10,762 nt of DNA from a virus (Duplodnaviria > Heunggongvirae > Uroviricota > Caudoviricetes): the IMG/VR virus record IMGVR_UViG_3300024344_000001. The stretch is one strand, 5' to 3'. The position numbers and the translations under genes were made by a program. The notes below the pieces were generated by a model. It was given only the letters and a program-made list of their open reading frames with translations, ran no database searches and was not told the origin of the DNA. Shown in pieces: positions 1 to 10,762 of the stretch. Within the stretch, counting starts at the first letter, position 1; each line of letters starts with the position of its first letter.

Positions 1-2
1 GC

Positions 3-260
3 AGTTTGTTTACATGGACAGGTAGGACTATGTGTTACTCCAAACCTCTCTGACCATTGGAAGATTATGTATTCATGGTTATCATGAGTAACAGTATCAA
101 TGTAATACTGATTCCCAACAGTAGTCTCTACCTTTGGTAAGGTAGATGTCCTATTTGCCTGCAAGAAAACAGGAACAAGTAAAACGGTTAGAATAAAGAC
201 AATAGCAACCATTACTAATATCTCAGTAATGGTTATACCACGGCGTTTTGGTGTTGTCAT
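3..260 (-). CDS. Prepilin-like (type IV pilin/pseudopilin N-terminal motif) membrane protein, 3'-truncated by window edge
   Basis: Not in ORF track. ATG at 260 overlaps the upstream TGA (ATGA); 86 open codons to the edge: MTTPKRRG|ITITEILVMVAIVFILTVLLVPVFLQANRTSTLPKVETTVGNQYYIDTVTHDNHEYIIFQWSERFGVTHSPTCPCKQT. Basic leader, Gly(-1), Glu(+5), about 20 hydrophobic residues. Confidence 0.75.
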   Translation of the reverse strand, partial: MTTPKRRGITITEILVMVAIVFILTVLLVPVFLQANRTSTLPKVETTVGNQYYIDTVTHDNHEYIIFQWSERFGVTHSPTCPCKQT

Positions 261-784
261 TTCACTCTCACGATCTTACATGCGTCTCGCCATAAGTTAG
301 AACAAAGGGGAGACCTTACCTTTGGACCCATGTATAGGAATGAGAATCCGGCATCAGAAGACTTACTGGTTAAGTCACCAACAACACACAAACCATCCTC
401 ACACACTTCTTGTACTATGTACTTACCACGACTTGTGGTATATTGATTCTCACCGTCACTATTTCTGTAGTACGGACCTGACCCTCCGACGACGCGGATA
501 CGGGTGCCTTTGGTAAGACTCTCCCAGTCCGTAATCTGGTTAGGCAGGACTCTATCAGTATGGGTCTTGATCTTAAACTTGTAATCGCAGCTAGGGCACT
601 CACGAGTACGTACACCTAAAATAGATTCACAGCCGGGGCATGTCTTCTTACCACGACCGTGATTACTTCTCTTAGGCTGAACTACACGCTTCTCAAACTT
701 GTGGTGACAATGAGGACAGCGATGGGAACGCGGACCAGTTGTACCACTACATTCAGGGCATGTTTTTTGTCCACGTTTACCCAT
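257..784 (-). CDS. Tandem double zinc-ribbon protein (175 aa)
   Basis: Likely start MGKRGQK at 784, just after the upstream TGA. Two repeats, GQKTCPECSGTTGPRSHRCPHCHHKF and GKKTCPGCESILGVRTRECPSCDYKF, give four CxxC motifs. Confidence 0.8.
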   Translation of the reverse strand: MGKRGQKTCPECSGTTGPRSHRCPHCHHKFEKRVVQPKRSNHGRGKKTCPGCESILGVRTRECPSCDYKFKIKTHTDRVLPNQITDWESLTKGTRIRVVGGSGPYYRNSDGENQYTTSRGKYIVQEVCEDGLCVVGDLTSKSSDAGFSFLYMGPKVRSPLCSNLWRDACKIVRVK

Positions 785-785
785 A

Positions 786-1142
786 TCAATACTCCAAACC
801 TTCCTTAGAAGCAAGTGTCCGCAAGCGTTCTGGCCACTCTTCTGGAAGAGAGCAGTCATGTATATCCTGTAGGTCACTACAGAAGTTTACCATATCGTTC
901 AAATGAGCTTCAACACCACAATCAACATAATCAAAAATTGGAATCGCATCCCTTACGGACTCCTCATGGATATGATTACCCTCAATTGAAGGTGAGTATC
1001 TGTCATCTGGAATTAAGCATCCAACAGCACACTTTGTGCCATAATTAGCACGATAGCTGCACACACCAGTCTCATCGAGACACTGCTTGTTCTGAGTGAG
1101 TAAATGATTTTTGACAGTAGTAAAGATCTCTTGTTTGTTCAT
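786..1142 (-). CDS. Conserved phage hypothetical protein (118 aa)
   Basis: MNKQEIFTTVKNHLLTQ...CSYR...KCAVGCLIPDDRY resembles a recurrent phage hypothetical pattern (recalled); ATGA coupling to the HD gene. Confidence 0.8.
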   Translation of the reverse strand: MNKQEIFTTVKNHLLTQNKQCLDETGVCSYRANYGTKCAVGCLIPDDRYSPSIEGNHIHEESVRDAIPIFDYVDCGVEAHLNDMVNFCSDLQDIHDCSLPEEWPERLRTLASKEGLEY

Positions 1143-1711
1143 GATTCTCTCTTGTTGATAGGTTCGTTCCTGGCGAGTTTCGCCTGCATCACAGTATCAT
1201 ATCCGGCTTCGATGCTTTTGTCAAGCTGATTCTCCAAGAATCCATCGATTCCGCGAAGAACTCCCGCTAACTTCACACTTTCGTCTAAGTAAGTATGAAG
1301 AAAATCAGGATCGCCGTCCATTTCAGACAGGTTATCAATTCTATCTGCCAGCTTAATCAGCTTACCAGCCGCACTAATCCTGGAGATACGGTTGAACTCA
1401 GCAGCCTTACGTTCCGCCCTATTCATATTAGGGTACTCGGACTTTTCGTACTGGTTCGTTACCTCCAAAACATATTCTGCAACCGGTACACCAAACGAAT
1501 CCACAAGATCCGGGTATGTAACATCAGTATCCTCAATCGTATCATGTAGAACTCCCGCAATAATAAGGTCATCAAAGTCTGGGTATCTATCCATAATACG
1601 GAAAGCTACCCTTACTGGATGGGCAATGTAAGGAACGCCGGAATACTTCCTAAGCTGATCCTTATGATGTAGGTTAGCGAACGTGATCGCCCTTAGCATT
1701 GTATCGTTCAT
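1139..1711 (-). CDS. HD-domain RelA/SpoT-type hydrolase (small alarmone hydrolase, Mesh1-like)
   Basis: Motifs AITFANLHHKDQLRK, PYIAHP, LHDTIEDT (HDxxED) and KLADRIDN match RSH hydrolase domains; there is no synthetase domain. Confidence 0.9.
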   Translation of the reverse strand: MNDTMLRAITFANLHHKDQLRKYSGVPYIAHPVRVAFRIMDRYPDFDDLIIAGVLHDTIEDTDVTYPDLVDSFGVPVAEYVLEVTNQYEKSEYPNMNRAERKAAEFNRISRISAAGKLIKLADRIDNLSEMDGDPDFLHTYLDESVKLAGVLRGIDGFLENQLDKSIEAGYDTVMQAKLARNEPINKRES

Positions 1712-1719
1712 AATGGTTT

Positions 1720-1812
1720 TTAATGTGTTGGTTGATAATACACATACATGCTCTTAATAGTCATGATAACTTGACCATATGGTGCAGAACTAATAGGTTG
1801 CCACTGATTCAT
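1720..1812 (-). CDS. 30-aa ORF, possible truncated remnant of a WQPIxxAP (DUF551-like) phage protein
   Basis: Not in ORF track. MNQWQPISSAPYGQVIMTIKSMYVYYQPTH*; ATG overlaps the upstream TGA; fills the 1712-1808 gap. Confidence 0.55.
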   Translation of the reverse strand: MNQWQPISSAPYGQVIMTIKSMYVYYQPTH

Positions 1813-2066
1813 CCGAGTCTACCAATCTTAGAAAGATCAATTCCATGAATAAACAGTAGACGACTTACAGCCGTTCCATAACATGACTCTTTGTATTCTG
1901 TCTGGTTCTTACGATACTCTTCCCACTGACAGATGAACCCAATTCTATCATGGAGATTATCAAGGTATAGGGCGTTTTGAATAGCCTTCTCAATAGTCTT
2001 GATTTCTGCTAGTGGTTGAATGTGTTTGTGATGATCCTCACACATACCCTCTGTCATGTCCAGCAT
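1809..2066 (-). CDS. Hypothetical protein (85 aa)
   Basis: Fits the operon packing, 1 nt after the upstream TAA. Confidence 0.7.
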   Translation of the reverse strand: MLDMTEGMCEDHHKHIQPLAEIKTIEKAIQNALYLDNLHDRIGFICQWEEYRKNQTEYKESCYGTAVSRLLFIHGIDLSKIGRLG

Positions 2067-2067
2067 G

Positions 2068-2283
2068 TTAGTCTCCGTAAATAGATTGACCTTGTTTTTG
2101 TGCCGCTGACTCCAGAGCCTTCTCTAACTCCGGTGAGATATGTTCGTACCTATCCGGTTCCTTCCACTCAGGAGGGCCATTACGAGCACTATCAAACAGT
2201 GAGGATAGAATGATAAACCCGACTGTGCATATAAACGCCCAGTACAGGAACTTACCTAAAGGATCTGGTTTTTGACTAGACAC
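2068..2283 (-). CDS. Small single-TM membrane protein (71 aa)
   Basis: GTG at 2283 with GGAGG 6 nt upstream is a better start than 2316; hydrophobic segment FLYWAFICTVGFIILSSLF. Confidence 0.7.
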   Translation of the reverse strand: MSSQKPDPLGKFLYWAFICTVGFIILSSLFDSARNGPPEWKEPDRYEHISPELEKALESAAQKQGQSIYGD

Positions 2284-2653
2284 TCTGTTCCTCCAATGAC
2301 TTAACTGCCGCAGCAATCAACTCAGGGTAAGTAGGATAAGTACCAGACCATGCCTGATAGTCCCACTCCTGCTTCGCAGTAGCAACAGTAATGGACTTAT
2401 CATCGTAATCAAACCAAATCTTCATCATGCGACCAAAAACGTAGTCGCCGTGAATTTCATTAGGGCGACTGTGAGACGGCCCTGGATAGTCACCAGCATT
2501 AGCAACATTATTCCAAATGTCTTCCTTGCTGGCTCCACCATTGTCCTGAAAGGCACCCATACCCATAGGACCACCGCAGGCATTCCATGCAAGCCACAAT
2601 GCTTCCTTAATTACTTCTTGTGGGTTATCAACTTCAATAGTTACTCGTGACAT
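2276..2653 (-). CDS. Hypothetical phage protein (125 aa)
   Basis: AAGGA SD; GMG and DYVFGRMMK motifs resemble a recurrent viral hypothetical pattern (recalled). Confidence 0.8.
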   Translation of the reverse strand: MSRVTIEVDNPQEVIKEALWLAWNACGGPMGMGAFQDNGGASKEDIWNNVANAGDYPGPSHSRPNEIHGDYVFGRMMKIWFDYDDKSITVATAKQEWDYQAWSGTYPTYPELIAAAVKSLEEQSV

Positions 2654-2682
2654 TTCATTTCCTTTACTTAATACGGGTTAGG

Positions 2683-3330
2683 TTAGCACCCACACCTATA
2701 ACCAGAGTTATCTCTATGTTTAGTAGAGAAGTAACGACCAGTAAACAGAGAAATATCTGTCCAGAATTCTCTGAGATCTCTCTCAAAGTCAACATCGCCG
2801 TATATCTCAGTACCGAAAAACAAAGTCTCTCCACTCACGGCCTGGTCAATAAGTCTACTTGGAGTAGCATAATACTCTTCAGCAAACTTACGTATACGTT
2901 CCAGTGCCGCTCTCTGAGTCTCAGTCAGACTATCAGCGGTCCAACCTCCATCAATGTCAACCTGAGAGCAACAACTCCACGCATTAGGATCAATGATATC
3001 ATCAATGTCCTTTACGGGCTTAGTTACTGGTTCCGGCTCACAAATATGATCCAGGTCTGGATGCTGCCACTGATGACGCATACCTGTAACTGTGTTAGGA
3101 AACAGGAATACCCAGAACTTCTCACCAACGTATACTGGACAGTCTAAGAATGGATCTACGATACCAACGTTATCAGAATATCCATCACTAGCAGTGCCAT
3201 CTTCATTGATGCGAACAGCAGTACCTGGCTCCATATTATCATCAGCAATACAAGGGAATACAGCTACATGAATAGCATCACGCATTACCTCTATGTCATC
3301 AGGAATCTTTTGTCCTAGTTTCGGTTCCAT
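2683..3330 (-). CDS. Hypothetical protein, paralog B (RDAIHVAV/GIVDPFL family)
   Basis: 215 aa; shares RDAIHVAV, VGIVDPFL, KFWxFLFPxTVTGMRHxWxHP, AWxCC and terminal CxC with 3340..4023. Confidence 0.85.
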   Translation of the reverse strand: MEPKLGQKIPDDIEVMRDAIHVAVFPCIADDNMEPGTAVRINEDGTASDGYSDNVGIVDPFLDCPVYVGEKFWVFLFPNTVTGMRHQWQHPDLDHICEPEPVTKPVKDIDDIIDPNAWSCCSQVDIDGGWTADSLTETQRAALERIRKFAEEYYATPSRLIDQAVSGETLFFGTEIYGDVDFERDLREFWTDISLFTGRYFSTKHRDNSGYRCGC

Positions 3331-3339
3331 AACAATCTC

Positions 3340-4023
3340 CTAACAGGAACAACTCCAACCCATACCTAAACGGTGGTCGTCGTCGTATTTTTCACCCGTA
3401 TACGTTTCCAGGTGCTTCCAGAATAGATTATGATCTTCACCTAAGTCACCACTATTATGTAGGTCGTGACCGTTAGCAACGATATATCTATCCCAACTTT
3501 CTCGATTATCACCAGACTTTGTAGCCTGTGCGATAAGTTCAGTCAAATCAAAGTTCCATCGGTCGCAGAAGTCCTGTAGCCAACGATAACTTTCTTCAGC
3601 TTCATCCTGCTGCCAATGATCTTCATCATAAACCTCACCAGCACAACACGCCCATGCTTCTTGGTACTCATACTCTCTGTCATTGAAAGCAGGAATACTA
3701 TCAGTTCTTTCCTTGAAAGCAGGGTGCATCCAGTGATGACGCATACCAGTCACAGTACCTGGAAATAAAAAACCCCAGAACTTCTGACCCTTCTCTACTC
3801 TCCAGTAAGTTACTTCACTAGCATTTAGAAATGGGTCTACAATACCAACGGCGTTGCCATAATTGCCGTTATATGCTGTATACTGATCTGTACTACCTAG
3901 GCGGAATGCACTACCAATAGATAGATCCTCACCCGCAGTCATAGGTACAACAGCAACATGGATAGCGTCACGATTTACATCGTCGCCTTCCCCAATTAGG
4001 TGTCCAAGATTAGGTTCAGACAT
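3340..4023 (-). CDS. Hypothetical protein, paralog A (RDAIHVAV/GIVDPFL family)
   Basis: 227 aa; same motifs as the neighbouring paralog. Confidence 0.85.
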   Translation of the reverse strand: MSEPNLGHLIGEGDDVNRDAIHVAVVPMTAGEDLSIGSAFRLGSTDQYTAYNGNYGNAVGIVDPFLNASEVTYWRVEKGQKFWGFLFPGTVTGMRHHWMHPAFKERTDSIPAFNDREYEYQEAWACCAGEVYDEDHWQQDEAEESYRWLQDFCDRWNFDLTELIAQATKSGDNRESWDRYIVANGHDLHNSGDLGEDHNLFWKHLETYTGEKYDDDHRLGMGWSCSC

Positions 4024-4267
4024 TTTTTACTTCCTTCAATGCTTCACTTAGAAAGTTACCATCTACCAACCATTGACCATCAATGTCTTCACATTCGTTA
4101 GCAATAGTAGCCAACAGGTGATTGTAATCGCCGCTCATAGCATCTGCCAGGATATCATCAATGTACTTCTTATCGAAACCCTGACGGCGAGCAGCAGTAG
4201 AAAACGCCCCCATAATAGAGAAAGCGTTACCATCAAGACCTACTAGCGTGAGTTTAACCTTGTCCAT
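4016..4267 (-). CDS. Conserved phage hypothetical protein (GxDGNAF...SGDYxHLL)
   Basis: LTLVGLDGNAFSIMGAF...AARRQG...AMSGDYNHLL resembles a widespread phage family of unknown function (recalled). Confidence 0.85.
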   Translation of the reverse strand: MDKVKLTLVGLDGNAFSIMGAFSTAARRQGFDKKYIDDILADAMSGDYNHLLATIANECEDIDGQWLVDGNFLSEALKEVKNV

Positions 4268-4269
4268 TA

Positions 4270-4842
4270 CTACCCCTTAGCGTAAGAATTCCATATTTCC
4301 AGATCCAACTCAGCAGGATCTCTACCCATGTCTCTTGAGAGACCTAAGAACTTCTGTTCCAATTCAACATAACGGCGACTTGAGCCAGGAGTCTGCTTAG
4401 GGGCATTTATACCCTTATACCTCAACCATTTCAGTATATGTACGTCTAACACAGCAATTTGTGCATTAGGACGTGAGTGCATGATAAAGAAACGGCTAGT
4501 CTTAAACCCAACGCCGTGTATTTGCTCTAATTGACTGATAGAACAGTGTTCTAAGTTAATTCCAGACCATGCCGCCGACAAGAAAGCCTTAGCACGCTGG
4601 TTGTAACACCCAAAACCCAACCACTTCAGTACAGTAGTCAGTTTCTTATTGTCCATCTGTCGTAGTCTATGGAATAGGGTAGGTCCATCATATTCGGACA
4701 CCAGCCACTCTTCAAACAACCACAACTGATTAGCAATAGTCTTACTGTTCTTACCGGCTACTGATATACTAAACAGGAGAAACCTTTGTAGGTCGTCTGT
4801 AGAGCGTTCAAAATCGGTAATCTTACTGGGATCAATCTTCAC
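4270..4842 (-). CDS. Helix-hairpin-helix DNA glycosylase/AP lyase-like protein (Ogg-type)
   Basis: HhH motif LEQIHGVGFKTSRFF with Lys, then IAVLDVHILKWL with Asp, as in archaeal/bacterial Ogg enzymes; GTG start with AAGGA SD right after a promoter. Confidence 0.8.
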   Translation of the reverse strand: MKIDPSKITDFERSTDDLQRFLLFSISVAGKNSKTIANQLWLFEEWLVSEYDGPTLFHRLRQMDNKKLTTVLKWLGFGCYNQRAKAFLSAAWSGINLEHCSISQLEQIHGVGFKTSRFFIMHSRPNAQIAVLDVHILKWLRYKGINAPKQTPGSSRRYVELEQKFLGLSRDMGRDPAELDLEIWNSYAKG

Positions 4843-4872
4843 GGCGTATCCTTTTCGTTTGAGTATGCCACC

Positions 4873-4900
4873 ATGATACTCGGCTCGCCGCGAATGTCAA
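4873..4900 (-). promoter_or_regulatory. Sigma70-like promoter
   Basis: TTGACA(4900-4895)-16 bp-TATCAT(4878-4873) in the intergenic gap upstream of the glycosylase gene. Confidence 0.7.
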
Positions 4901-4946
4901 GCGGATTTCGGCCAATTAGATCAATTTTTCTGGATCAAAGTCCTCA

Positions 4947-5168
4947 TTAGATTTTCTCCTGTGCTGCATCAATTAAATCGTTAATGGAATCAATACAAAC
5001 CTCAACAACGTGTGCTGAGTGTTGCATGATAGGATCTCTTTCCTTACCGTATTCCTCAATTAACTCTTGAAACTCAGTACGAAGACCGATAAGAGATTGA
5101 CGAGCCATAGTAACGCCGTCAATCACCCCACGCCGCCAATGAGGATTAAGTTCTAGTTCTTCCGTCAT
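4947..5168 (-). CDS. Hypothetical protein (73 aa)
   Basis: Likely start MTEELEL at 5168, ATGA overlap with the upstream stop. Confidence 0.7.
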   Translation of the reverse strand: MTEELELNPHWRRGVIDGVTMARQSLIGLRTEFQELIEEYGKERDPIMQHSAHVVEVCIDSINDLIDAAQEKI

Positions 5169-5347
5169 GAGAAGAAACCTCCCCAATAAAGAAGACCTAA
5201 CCAAAATACGGTCTTAACCATCCATATACCAAAATTTTGTGCATGTGTATTATCTAACGTTCCGTCTGAATTAGCGGAAGTAACACCTGCTCGTACACCA
5301 AATACACAGGCGATTAGAACAAGTAGTATAATTTGTGGTAAACCCAT
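5165..5347 (-). CDS. Small two-TM membrane protein (60 aa)
   Basis: Likely start MGLPQ at 5347 (TGATATG junction); two hydrophobic segments. Confidence 0.7.
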   Translation of the reverse strand: MGLPQIILLVLIACVFGVRAGVTSANSDGTLDNTHAQNFGIWMVKTVFWLGLLYWGGFFS

Positions 5348-5348
5348 A

Positions 5349-5558
5349 TCAATCATAACTTTCTATCAAAGGTTCATTCTTCCACTGCCAGTTACCAGTA
5401 GTAGTATTGTATTCAGCCTGATTTCTCCGTATTAGTTCCGTTTGCCAGGTTTCCTCAGTAAAGTGATGGGATATACCCATACCCAAGATTGCTCCTAGCA
5501 TAAAACATAAGAACAAACCAAATCCAACAGCAGCACCAGCAGTCTTATCGTCATACAT
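5349..5558 (-). CDS. Small N-terminally anchored membrane protein (69 aa)
   Basis: AGAAVGFGLFLCFMLGAILGMGI hydrophobic helix followed by a polar tail. Confidence 0.75.
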   Translation of the reverse strand: MYDDKTAGAAVGFGLFLCFMLGAILGMGISHHFTEETWQTELIRRNQAEYNTTTGNWQWKNEPLIESYD

Positions 5559-5578
5559 AACTAAACCCTTCTTCCTTG

Positions 5579-5938
5579 TTATGGGGTTTTCTGACCATGA
5601 CCGAGTAGAAGTTTCTCAGTCGCCGTAAGTTTTTTAAGGGCCTTAGCCTTAACCTTTTCTTCACCTACAATTCGTTCTTCTGTACGAAAGTAGTTCTTAT
5701 TCCTGGAAGCCGCCAAGACATTATCTCGATCTTCTTCACTCCAACTAGCATATACTTCGTTGGTTGGTTCTTTGCCATCAACGCCGTTTTGAACTATTAA
5801 GTAAACTATCTTCTTCATGTTAGTATCCTTCTGGTGGGTTGTAGGAATAGATTGTTGAGGGTTCCTAGCCCGCTGTGCCCACTCCTGAGCAAGACGTTTA
5901 TTCTCTTCTCTAGCTCGACGGTATGGATTGAACGCCAT
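5579..5938 (-). CDS. Hypothetical protein (119 aa; alternative internal start at 5818, 79 aa)
   Basis: AGGAG 6 nt before ATG 5938; AAGGA 7 nt before ATG 5818. Confidence 0.65.
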   Translation of the reverse strand: MAFNPYRRAREENKRLAQEWAQRARNPQQSIPTTHQKDTNMKKIVYLIVQNGVDGKEPTNEVYASWSEEDRDNVLAASRNKNYFRTEERIVGEEKVKAKALKKLTATEKLLLGHGQKTP

Positions 5939-6164
5939 CATCTTCTCCTAACACATAGGTGCTATACACATGAGAAATACAGTATATGATACGATCACTA
6001 TCCCTGTAAAAACAGTCGTACTTAGTACCGCTAATAGCATTAGCTATGTCAGGGCATATGTCATACAGGTTGTTGAATAGGTGTTGTCCTACTCTGTACT
6101 GACTTGGTCTGGTATGAATGCAGTCTAACCACTGTGTGAATTCACTCGTAGTCATCGTCTTCAT
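5910..6164 (-). CDS. Conserved phage hypothetical protein (RxGQxLFN...DxFY)
   Basis: YRVGQHLFNNL...PDIANAISGTKYDCFYRD resembles a recurrent phage pattern (recalled); start could be 6155. Confidence 0.75.
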   Translation of the reverse strand: MKTMTTSEFTQWLDCIHTRPSQYRVGQHLFNNLYDICPDIANAISGTKYDCFYRDSDRIIYCISHVYSTYVLGEDDGVQSIPSS

Positions 6165-8815: not shown

Positions 8816-8822
8816 GTAAGAC

Positions 8823-9206
8823 TTACTTATCAAGAGCTAAGAAAAACTTAACTCTGTCATGTGGCATAACATAATTCTTACCGTTCTGGTTAGTAACGAT
8901 AATAGTATTCTTAGTAGCACGGGGCTTACATCCAAGAATAGTAAATACATCTTTACCACTCGAAAATGTGCGGCCCAGGTCACTCTCAGTCATACCATAG
9001 CGGCGACAGTAAAACTTAAAGTCTTCTGCTGCCTTGGAGCTTTGAGATCCATCAGCATTATCGGCGGCAATATCCAACTTTATTGTGAACACAGTATCCG
9101 TAAAACTACCACGCCCAAGGGATACACTAACGCCCTCATAATTAAATGCGGACATATGATTCTCCAGGGCCTCACGAATATCTTTACACTTAGCATGGTT
9201 CAACAT
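8823..9206 (-). CDS. Conserved phage hypothetical protein (127 aa)
   Basis: AAGG SD, directly behind promoter 9260-9287; YGMTESDLGRTF...GKNY resembles a recurrent phage pattern (recalled). Confidence 0.85.
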   Translation of the reverse strand: MLNHAKCKDIREALENHMSAFNYEGVSVSLGRGSFTDTVFTIKLDIAADNADGSQSSKAAEDFKFYCRRYGMTESDLGRTFSSGKDVFTILGCKPRATKNTIIVTNQNGKNYVMPHDRVKFFLALDK

Positions 9207-9259
9207 GACTTACCTTTCATTTGCTGACTATTAGATGATCGCCGTATCGGCTTCCTTTG

Positions 9260-9302: not shown

Positions 9303-9331
9303 ATAACAAAAGTCGCTGGCTATGATATGAT
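9303..9331 (+). promoter_or_regulatory. Possible antisense promoter
   Basis: ATAACA(9303-9308)-17 bp-TATGAT(9326-9331), with TGn extension (TGA 9323-9325). Confidence 0.3.
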
Positions 9332-9360: not shown

Positions 9361-9413
9361 GGGGTGAACAAATGTCCACCCCACACACGGCGGGGTGAAC
9401 ACATGGACACACC
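9361..9413. repeat. Two 22-bp imperfect palindromic direct repeats (period 31)
   Basis: GGGGTGAACAAATGTCCACCCC (9361-9382) and GGGGTGAACACATGGACACACC (9392-9413), 18/22 identical. Confidence 0.7.
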
Positions 9414-9472
9414 TACTTGCCACATTTCTGTGCTAGTAGTGCCAACAAAACGAGCAAACATAGTTGCGTCAT
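9413..9472 (-). CDS. 19-aa hydrophobic micro-peptide (type I toxin-like)
   Basis: Not in ORF track. AGGAG 8 nt before ATG; MTQLCLLVLLALLAQKCGK*; directly behind promoter 9519-9546. Confidence 0.55.
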   Translation of the reverse strand: MTQLCLLVLLALLAQKCGK

Positions 9473-9482
9473 AAACTCTTCT

Positions 9483-9656
9483 CCTAACCTTATGGGGCAC
9501 ACGGACTTACGTCTACTCATTGTACCATAAGATCAGGAATAGTCAACCCCTAGGGCGAGCGATTGTGAGATTCGTCGTAACGTGTTGGTATCATTGGACT
9601 TACGGCGAAGCGAAGGGCCGGGCCGGTCGTAACTCCTTACGTCGCAACTACTTACG
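9483..9656. repeat. Three 29-bp imperfect palindromes C(G/C)TAAC-N17-CTTACG
   Basis: 9483-9511 CCTAACCTTATGGGGCACACGGACTTACG; 9576-9604 CGTAACGTGTTGGTATCATTGGACTTACG; 9628-9656 CGTAACTCCTTACGTCGCAACTACTTACG. Confidence 0.75.
9519..9546 (-). promoter_or_regulatory. Sigma70-like promoter with extended -10
   Basis: TTGACT(9546-9541)-16 bp-TACAAT(9524-9519), preceded by TGG. Confidence 0.8.
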
Positions 9657-9837
9657 ACCAGTGATTGGTCGTGATGATCGGATGTTCACCAACAGGGATA
9701 TTTTGTAGGGTGAGAATCAATTCCTCCCTAGTCAGCGGTGCGGGTGACTTAGCTCCCCATATTAGGGTGACCAGTTCCGTGTCCCAGTCAATCAAAACCT
9801 GAAGATATTCGCCAGAATCAGAAGAAATATAATACAT
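9652..9837 (-). CDS. Hypothetical protein (61 aa)
   Basis: GGAG SD before ATG 9837 (MYYISSDS); the track's longer N-terminus runs through a terminator. Confidence 0.6.
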   Translation of the reverse strand: MYYISSDSGEYLQVLIDWDTELVTLIWGAKSPAPLTREELILTLQNIPVGEHPIITTNHWS

Positions 9838-9847
9838 GAGATTCTCC

Positions 9848-9889
9848 AAAAAAGAAAAACCCAGGGGGCACATAAAGCCACCCCTTGGG
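9848..9889 (-). terminator. Intrinsic terminator after the DUF932-like gene
   Basis: GC-rich stem CCCAAGGGGTGGC-TTTATGT-GCCCCCTGGG followed by TTTTTCTTTTTT. Confidence 0.8.
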
Positions 9890-9903
9890 CCACCACCAAC
9901 CAC

Positions 9904-10761
9904 TTACGCAGACAGTGCCAATCCTTCAGCCTTGAGAACCTCGGTTGAGCTACCCGCCTTGAGGATTCTATCGAATGACGTGTTGAACGCCGTTCGACGT
10001 GTTGACTGATGCTGAGTCCAACCCTGAACAGCGTTGTACGCTTCCCAGGCAGACACAACACCGACACCGTTTGACAAGTCTCGACCTGTCTTCTGTCGTT
10101 CGTTCCACAGTCGGTCAAAGATTTCTTGAGTACGATTGCGGTGAATCGTAACCTCTCGAACACTCTCACCAGCAGCAGCACGACCGAGATTCTCAGCCGA
10201 AGGCTGACCATAAACTTCATTCAAGAAGTCGGCCATATTAACTTGTCGTCTTTCCATCTGATCGATAACATCAGTCAGAGTAGACCAACCATTTTTCAAC
10301 AGGTTGAACTGTTCGACCAGTGTATCCATCTGGACACGCAGACCGGATGTGTGACGAATGGAAACAGCAAGGCCGGAAACCTTACGCATCCATGACAGGT
10401 TCAGGCAGGCATCGCGGTAGTAACCCAAGATAGCCTTGAAACCCCTGCCATCGAAACCACCGGACACCATGAACCGTGGCCAGATATTATCCGCACCATT
10501 GTAGATGGATCGGCGGAAGCCGTCAGTCGGAGCGATGGACACATAGTGACCATTGCGGAAGTGACACTGCAAATTGACTTCGCAGTCAAACGCATGTTGT
10601 GCGGCTTCACACAAGGCGGTCACGTCATCAGTCGTATGCGGCACATACCGCGAACTGATCGACTTGACACCTTCCAGGTAGCCGGTGTCAGAACGGAACA
10701 AACCGTACTGATCGGTCGGCATGTTGTCGGGACCGAACAGCGGAAACTTATCGACTGCGAA
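9904..10761 (-). CDS. DUF932/DUF945-like phage/plasmid protein, 5'-truncated by window edge
   Basis: The frame stays open upstream of ATG 10722 (FAVDKFPLFGPDNMPTDQYGLFRSD). The pattern YGLFRSD, SRYVPH, G-x-DG, YRDACLNL, SIRHT, SAWEAYNAVQGW is typical of the family (recalled). Confidence 0.7.
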   Translation of the reverse strand, partial: FAVDKFPLFGPDNMPTDQYGLFRSDTGYLEGVKSISSRYVPHTTDDVTALCEAAQHAFDCEVNLQCHFRNGHYVSIAPTDGFRRSIYNGADNIWPRFMVSGGFDGRGFKAILGYYRDACLNLSWMRKVSGLAVSIRHTSGLRVQMDTLVEQFNLLKNGWSTLTDVIDQMERRQVNMADFLNEVYGQPSAENLGRAAAGESVREVTIHRNRTQEIFDRLWNERQKTGRDLSNGVGVVSAWEAYNAVQGWTQHQSTRRTAFNTSFDRILKAGSSTEVLKAEGLALSA

Positions 10762-10762
10762 G

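Follow-up and report, generated by a model that had tools for sequence, protein, structure and literature searches.

The window, as the whole 10,762-nt stretch of viral DNA analysed here is called, contains three 29-bp palindromic elements, termed boxes A, B and C. The genes near them all lie on the minus strand, with a DUF932 gene as the upstream gene. The features of this region are as follows.

9413–9472, minus strand: predicted micro-ORF (19 aa, hydrophobic) behind the promoter, with an SD sequence
9483–9511, unstranded: box C, single and degenerate, covering the predicted start site and the edge of the SD
9519–9546, minus strand: predicted sigma70-like promoter (TTGACT, 16 bp, TG-extended TACAAT), between box B and box C
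9576–9604, unstranded: box B, the promoter-proximal box; its minus strand has one mismatch to the IHF consensus WATCAANNNNTTR
9605–9627, unstranded: GC-rich linker of 23 bp between boxes A and B, giving a box period of 52 bp
9628–9656, unstranded: box A, the distal box of the doublet, symmetric and of IHF type (11-7-11; matrix score 33.9, rank 1 in the window)
9652–9837, minus strand: ORF of 61 aa without a family match; its end lies in the outer arm of box A
9865–9884, minus strand: intrinsic-terminator-like hairpin after DUF932
9898–9908, minus strand: half-site look-alike at the DUF932 stop codon, not a full box
9904–10762, minus strand: DUF932 gene, 3' part only, its start being beyond the window; the source contig gives a length of 303 aa

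The pattern TAAC-N16-ACTTAC has exactly three matches in the window (9483–9511, 9576–9604 and 9628–9656), each 29 bp long, and in order-3 Markov simulations it was absent from 299 of 300 sequences and matched once in the remaining one (0.3%). The same segments are the top three of the window when scored with a matrix of the box family (33.9, 14.1 and 10.6, the next best being −3.3). The initial annotation, made from the sequence alone, had noted three elements of equal length, two upstream of a −35 hexamer and one covering the micro-ORF's predicted start site and SD edge, and these observations hold: the sigma70-like promoter lies between the boxes starting at 9576 and 9628 and box C, which begins 7 bp past the −10. 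Its account of the arms requires revision, as the geometry is 11-7-11 (TAA-N4-TT-N7-AA-N4-TTA) and not 12-5-12, and the arms are not asymmetric; TAA at positions 3–5 and TTA at 25–27 are invariant in 27 oriented doublets from the family, and the AAC/AAG difference is local variation.

Boxes A and B form a doublet around the GC-rich linker. The centre of box A lies at about −130 relative to the predicted start site and that of box B at about −78, with box B starting 58 bp before the −35. The spacer of box B, TGATACC, is seen again in the proximal boxes of relatives, and a start-site box like box C is found again in the last array unit of loci L001, L023 and L025.

The TAA of box A doubles as the stop codon of the 61-aa ORF (9837–9652). 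Two consecutive genes had been described as ending in near-identical arms; this is correct for the 61-aa ORF, whereas the arm at 9908–9897 is only a half-site. As a full site the latter was rejected, having no second arm and a full-site score of −33, with a half-site chance expectation of 0.3 per window (P ≈ 0.27); it owes part of its sequence to the Ala codon and stop with which DUF932 ends in several relatives too. The copies of GACTTAC at 8820–8826 and 9207–9213, previously read as bracketing a 127-aa gene, were likewise rejected as sites, coinciding with that gene's stop codon and RBS/start region, with no partner arm and full-site scores of −52 and −44. Outside the boxes GACTTAC is mildly over-represented on the plus strand (four copies against 0.8 expected). 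The proposed tie between elements and stop codons is true of box A and is a minority feature of the family, in which the TAA of the upstream ORF comes from the doublet in 7 of 112 cases; ten ORFs end inside the first box and 23 end 60 bp or less before it, which fits dense packing of genes against the unit head.

A GC-rich hairpin (9376–9410) follows the 19-aa micro-ORF in a region with a folding z of −2.1; relatives are without this micro-ORF and instead have short hydrophobic ORFs directly before the last doublet. The 127-aa gene (8823–9206) is a member of the mostly viral family PF27402 (Y4mA_C), and no relatives of it were found in IMG/VR. Elsewhere in the window are two tandem paralogous genes (2683–3330 and 3340–4023; 85-nt repeat, 71% identical), of which the 227-aa member matches phrog_11912, and near them an Ogg-HhH glycosylase-like gene (4270–4842) and an HD-domain gene (1139–1711).

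Relatives of DUF932 and a pattern scan led to phage loci with many copies of the element. DUF932, which has no cultured relative in the GenBank phage set, is a conserved landmark just ahead of the last array unit. The family profile has invariant TAA (positions 3–5), TT (10–11), AA (19–20) and TTA (25–27) around a variable 7-bp centre. The family matrix is symmetrised by construction, and symmetry was therefore checked on the 27 oriented doublets, in which none was forced; it holds there as well. The period of the doublets is mostly 50–53 bp, with 41–42 and 58 bp also occurring, their linkers (mean 81% GC) are mostly 21–24 bp long, and they recur every 0.5–2 kb in arrays. The window's own phage, a 138-kb contig 99.9% identical to the window, has 16 boxes over ∼12 kb of its early region, as counted in 30 kb of the contig: one single box, seven doublets and box C. 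The window holds the last unit of this larger array, and the initial annotation had seen the array's tail. In relatives, which it had proposed to scan as a check, such arrays are confined to the early region; G001–G004 have 6–24 boxes, all in one early region, and none in the other 100–150 kb. The box-bearing phages are uncultured, aquatic and ∼140–160 kb in size. Two related phages, G012 (100% complete) and G015, are essentially box-free, and loci from their group share early gene families and promoters with the box-bearing phages.

Tandem 280-bp repeats of a doublet-bearing unit in L020 and L027:9555–10200 are either a recent duplication or an assembly artefact. Just past the last array unit an AG(T/C)CAGC repeat is found, often at intervals of ∼60 bp (in the window at 9223–9229 and 9315–9321). 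Such series occur at L001:7233–7467 and in L003, L005, L008, L011 and L016, and relatives without boxes have them as well; they are iteron-like and possibly mark an origin or a packaging signal.

The doublets are polar with respect to promoters: a co-oriented sigma70 promoter lies within 130 bp downstream of 59 of 146 doublets, whereas the reversed arrangement was observed twice. The distance separating the −35 from the proximal box has its maxima at 58, 68 and 78 bp, i.e. in helical steps, and the box-to-promoter distances in the window's phage are 78, 78, 74, 88, 89, 79, 117 and 58 bp. Spacing inherited among related phages inflates the phasing statistic; since these phages are not independent, distinct genome–distance pairs outside the main peak were counted, of which 17 of 25 were in phase (p = 0.014). 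A promoter is recognisable within 130 bp of only ∼40% of doublets, and few are seen in some arrays, such as those of L019 and L032. In many of the near-consensus sigma70 early promoters (L001, L003, L023, L025, L030 and L196) the spacer between −35 and −10 contains G(C/A)CGAT, a second promoter motif found phage-wide.

The box halves resemble the AA-N4-TTR part of the IHF consensus, WATCAANNNNTTR (PMC8942017). In register, 132 of the 267 boxes are within one mismatch of this consensus and 53 match it perfectly, against 42.9 ± 5.7 boxes within one mismatch (maximum 59) when the spacer letters were shuffled; the WATC part of the consensus was absent from the box search pattern. About half of the boxes, A and C among them, deviate from WATC, and the total mismatches are one in box B, two in box A and four in box C. 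When phage Mu (positions 1–6000) was scanned with the matrix trained on the phage boxes, the sole perfect IHF consensus, at 933–961 between c and ner and 60 bp before a candidate −35, ranked 1 of 5972. We take this to be the IHF site acting on Pe. Control of single phage promoters by IHF is textbook knowledge, with Mu Pe and lambda pL among its sites of action. IHF acts on Mu Pe from a specific site (PMC3820752), and phase-dependent activation by IHF has a precedent (PMC2753651). Three consensus sites at lambda attP are in the TT-N7-AA register and rank 11, 70 and 1620 of 48,474; none of the ten top matrix matches in lambda is a perfect consensus, and the matrix is overall a poor predictor of E. 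coli IHF sites. The likeness to IHF sites is therefore real, but the specificity is not that of E. coli IHF.

High-affinity E. coli IHF sites have a 5' dA/dT tract. This tract is missing from the boxes, which have a mirrored TAA-N4-TT arm in its place. The IHF sites of Mu Pe, lambda pL and attP share with the boxes the AA-N4-TTR half, the TT-N7-AA core and their common register, and at Mu Pe the distance to the −35 is also similar (60 bp in Mu, 58 bp in the window and 58, 68 or 78 bp in the family). In contrast to E. coli IHF sites, the boxes are symmetric, with TTR on both sides, have CG flanks and are paired at 41–53 bp across a GC-rich linker, with 6–24 repeats per early region. By sequence they would belong to the E. 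coli IHF-site class only in part: they agree with it in register and phasing but lack the dA-tract.

The box motif is also present in bacterial chromosomes, either singly or paired inside MITE-like elements with terminal inverted repeats. These elements are ∼130–150 bp long with two inner boxes 46–58 bp apart (L034–L113, from OZ252228.1, CAXGRO01 and OX639990.1, and L037, L104 and L163), and one Latescibacterota chromosome has dozens of MITE-like copies, with 94 pattern matches. In the Planctomycetota genome G055 (L162, L164 and L166–L168) single boxes are found between inverted CAACC/GGTTG motifs, an arrangement resembling mobile-element ends or the architecture of CRISPR leaders. IHF sites occur inside transposon ends, MITEs and BIME-1/RIP repeats, and a placement between inverted repeats is typical of IHF. 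They are also found in CRISPR leaders (bioRxiv 10.1101/2023.05.26.542337). The paired boxes between inverted repeats in Latescibacterota, Entotheonella and Planctomycetota chromosomes are similarly placed, whereas the phage doublets lack terminal inverted repeats and point towards promoters.

No PF00216 (HU/IHF) protein is encoded by the box-bearing phages searched, and a phage-encoded HU/IHF protein was rejected as the binder on this ground. Comparison of box-bearing with box-less phages produced no recognisable regulator specific to the former, only enzymes, GP88 and small family-less ORFs. These two results, together with the presence of the motif in bacterial chromosomes, indicate that a host protein is likely. 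The residues with which IHF-beta reads its site are Arg42, Glu44 and Arg46 (bioRxiv 10.1101/2024.06.24.600358). In Planctomycetota, proteins with the beta-type R-x-E-x-R motif are common (at least 18 of 29 HU/IHF loci), and a symmetric box would be expected if both subunits carried the IHF-beta residues, a structural link that we infer. Planctomycetota are only a lead as the host; the MAG bins of the box-bearing contigs are scattered over many phyla and point to no host.

Several other explanations were considered. The initial annotation had proposed tyrosine-recombinase-like sites delimiting shufflable cassettes of early genes, and tyrosine-recombinase-like geometry is indeed present, with inverted arms around a 7-bp spacer (11-7-11). 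Inverted arms, a short spacer and a position at gene-unit boundaries are shared with Xer dif/pdif, loxP-type sites, the lambda att core and integron attC sites. Gene order between doublets differs among relatives, and in a gene replacement between L025 and L026 homology resumes inside a box. However, exchange of the lambda, Cre or Xer type needs matching overlaps, and the spacers are identical in only 6–7% of within-genome box pairs and in 3 of 118 doublets; they differ even on the two sides of the L025/L026 junction, which would fit homologous exchange in a shared repeat. Of three junctions aligned, this one ends in a box, and the other two are indels at direct repeats within promoter leaders rather than in the palindromes. 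One of these, 254 bp long, distinguishes L025 from L026. The other, of 212 bp (L196:6563–6774 against L197/L198), is found within the population of the window's phage; it comprises a small ORF and the next promoter and has near-identical promoter-leader repeats on both sides, ∼100 bp downstream of a doublet. A check for a Xer/Int gene gave no PF00589 or PF00239 member in the near-complete (88–98%) box-bearing relatives G001–G004, the one recombinase match being in fragment G018. In addition, box-less relatives hold the same early genes, and cassette excision or shuffling would leave the fixed phase to promoters unexplained. The boxes also differ from the known recombination sites in having neither spacer homology, nor a recombinase found with them, nor a folded bottom strand. 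It is therefore very unlikely that they are core sites for a tyrosine recombinase, possibly a host Xer-like enzyme; the boxes lie at unit boundaries and may act as passive patches of homology.

The indels recall the promoter-early-stem-loop (PeSL) cassettes of T4-like phages (PMC2839356, PMC4122927), in which crossovers map between the −10 and the ATG (PMC2839356), as do the 254-bp and 212-bp indels. Common to both is a hypervariable early region in which the heads of ORFan units, each with a sigma70 promoter, are repeated. The PeSL repeat, however, is a transcribed stem-loop terminator, whereas the boxes lie upstream of the −35 and show neither a fold nor covariation, and IHF is not mentioned in the 2010 PeSL paper. 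The boxes are thus not PeSL members, yet the region behaves like a PeSL region. The imperfect inverted repeat in each box also raised the possibility of hairpins in RNA or in single-stranded DNA, such as terminators or attC-like folds. RNAalifold gave no consensus structure for the boxes, covariation measures over the 27 oriented doublets were all at or below those of shuffles (paired cells 77.9% against 80.0%), the folding z of the window doublet is −0.06 and no Rfam match was found. The RNA hairpin or attC reading was rejected on these results, and hairpins of either kind are extremely improbable.

That the elements are operators of a dimeric regulator, as was also suggested initially, is correct in so far as they appear to be dimeric-protein sites tied to a promoter, but a bending protein of the host IHF/HU family is likelier than a phage repressor. 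Palindromic, promoter-polar boxes that are confined to the early region, with box C and three equivalents overlapping a start site, would suit another dimeric regulator, of phage or host origin, that switches early promoters off or on. Against this, no DNA-binding-like family is restricted to box-bearing phages (two small ORFs are family-less), the motif is also found in unrelated chromosomes and MITEs, most boxes are 40–60 bp upstream of the −35 rather than on it, and the spacer is enriched for WATC. Such a regulator is accordingly unlikely, although less so than an architectural array in which the same bending protein would serve DNA entry, the start of packaging or a replication origin, the link to promoters being due to co-duplication. 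The array begins ∼330 bp from the divergent, terminase-holding block in the window's phage and is near the terminase in G002, and the iteron-like AG(T/C)CAGC series follows the last unit; however, the distance to the promoter shifts in ∼10-bp steps and the iteron-like series is also present in box-less relatives, making this architectural role quite improbable.

The preferred interpretation, with a probability of about 0.65, is that the boxes are binding sites for a host IHF-beta-like protein that tune early promoters, rather than recombination sites, even though the related phages G012 and G015 have similar early regions that lack boxes. Each box would consist of two back-to-back AA-N4-TTR halves around a TT-N7-AA core and would be bound by a host HU/IHF-family dimer, probably with IHF-beta reading residues in both subunits. 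Two boxes about five helical turns apart would head each early transcription unit, the doublet keeping to a fixed helix face upstream of a sigma70 promoter of the host type. By bending the DNA there, the protein could switch the promoter on or lift its silencing, as is known of IHF at Mu Pe and lambda pL, while box C, over the start site, might damp the promoter of the last unit. As a by-product, the repeated heads of doublet plus promoter could provide short homology for PeSL-like gene exchange. It is conceivable, if doubtful, that the doublets form a nucleoprotein device, in which two symmetric U-turn bends five turns apart would wrap incoming DNA around a homodimeric IHF-beta-like protein and a further factor would read the GC-rich linker, the array shielding the first-expressed region from silencing and focusing gene exchange.

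The boxes are not a new kind of system, but the literature searched contains no description of the paired-box element, nor of a genome-level design in which most early units are headed by symmetric twin boxes, a dozen or more in all. One question stated as open (bioRxiv 10.1101/2024.06.24.600358) is whether IHF-beta-like proteins form homodimers and recognise specific sequences in lineages that lack IHF-alpha; the boxes offer a direct test of it, the family making hundreds of natural variants of one site available. If the nucleoprotein device exists, its boxes would give bacterial lineages that have only IHF-beta their first defined binding motif. The presence or absence of boxes among related phages could also help to assign their hosts.
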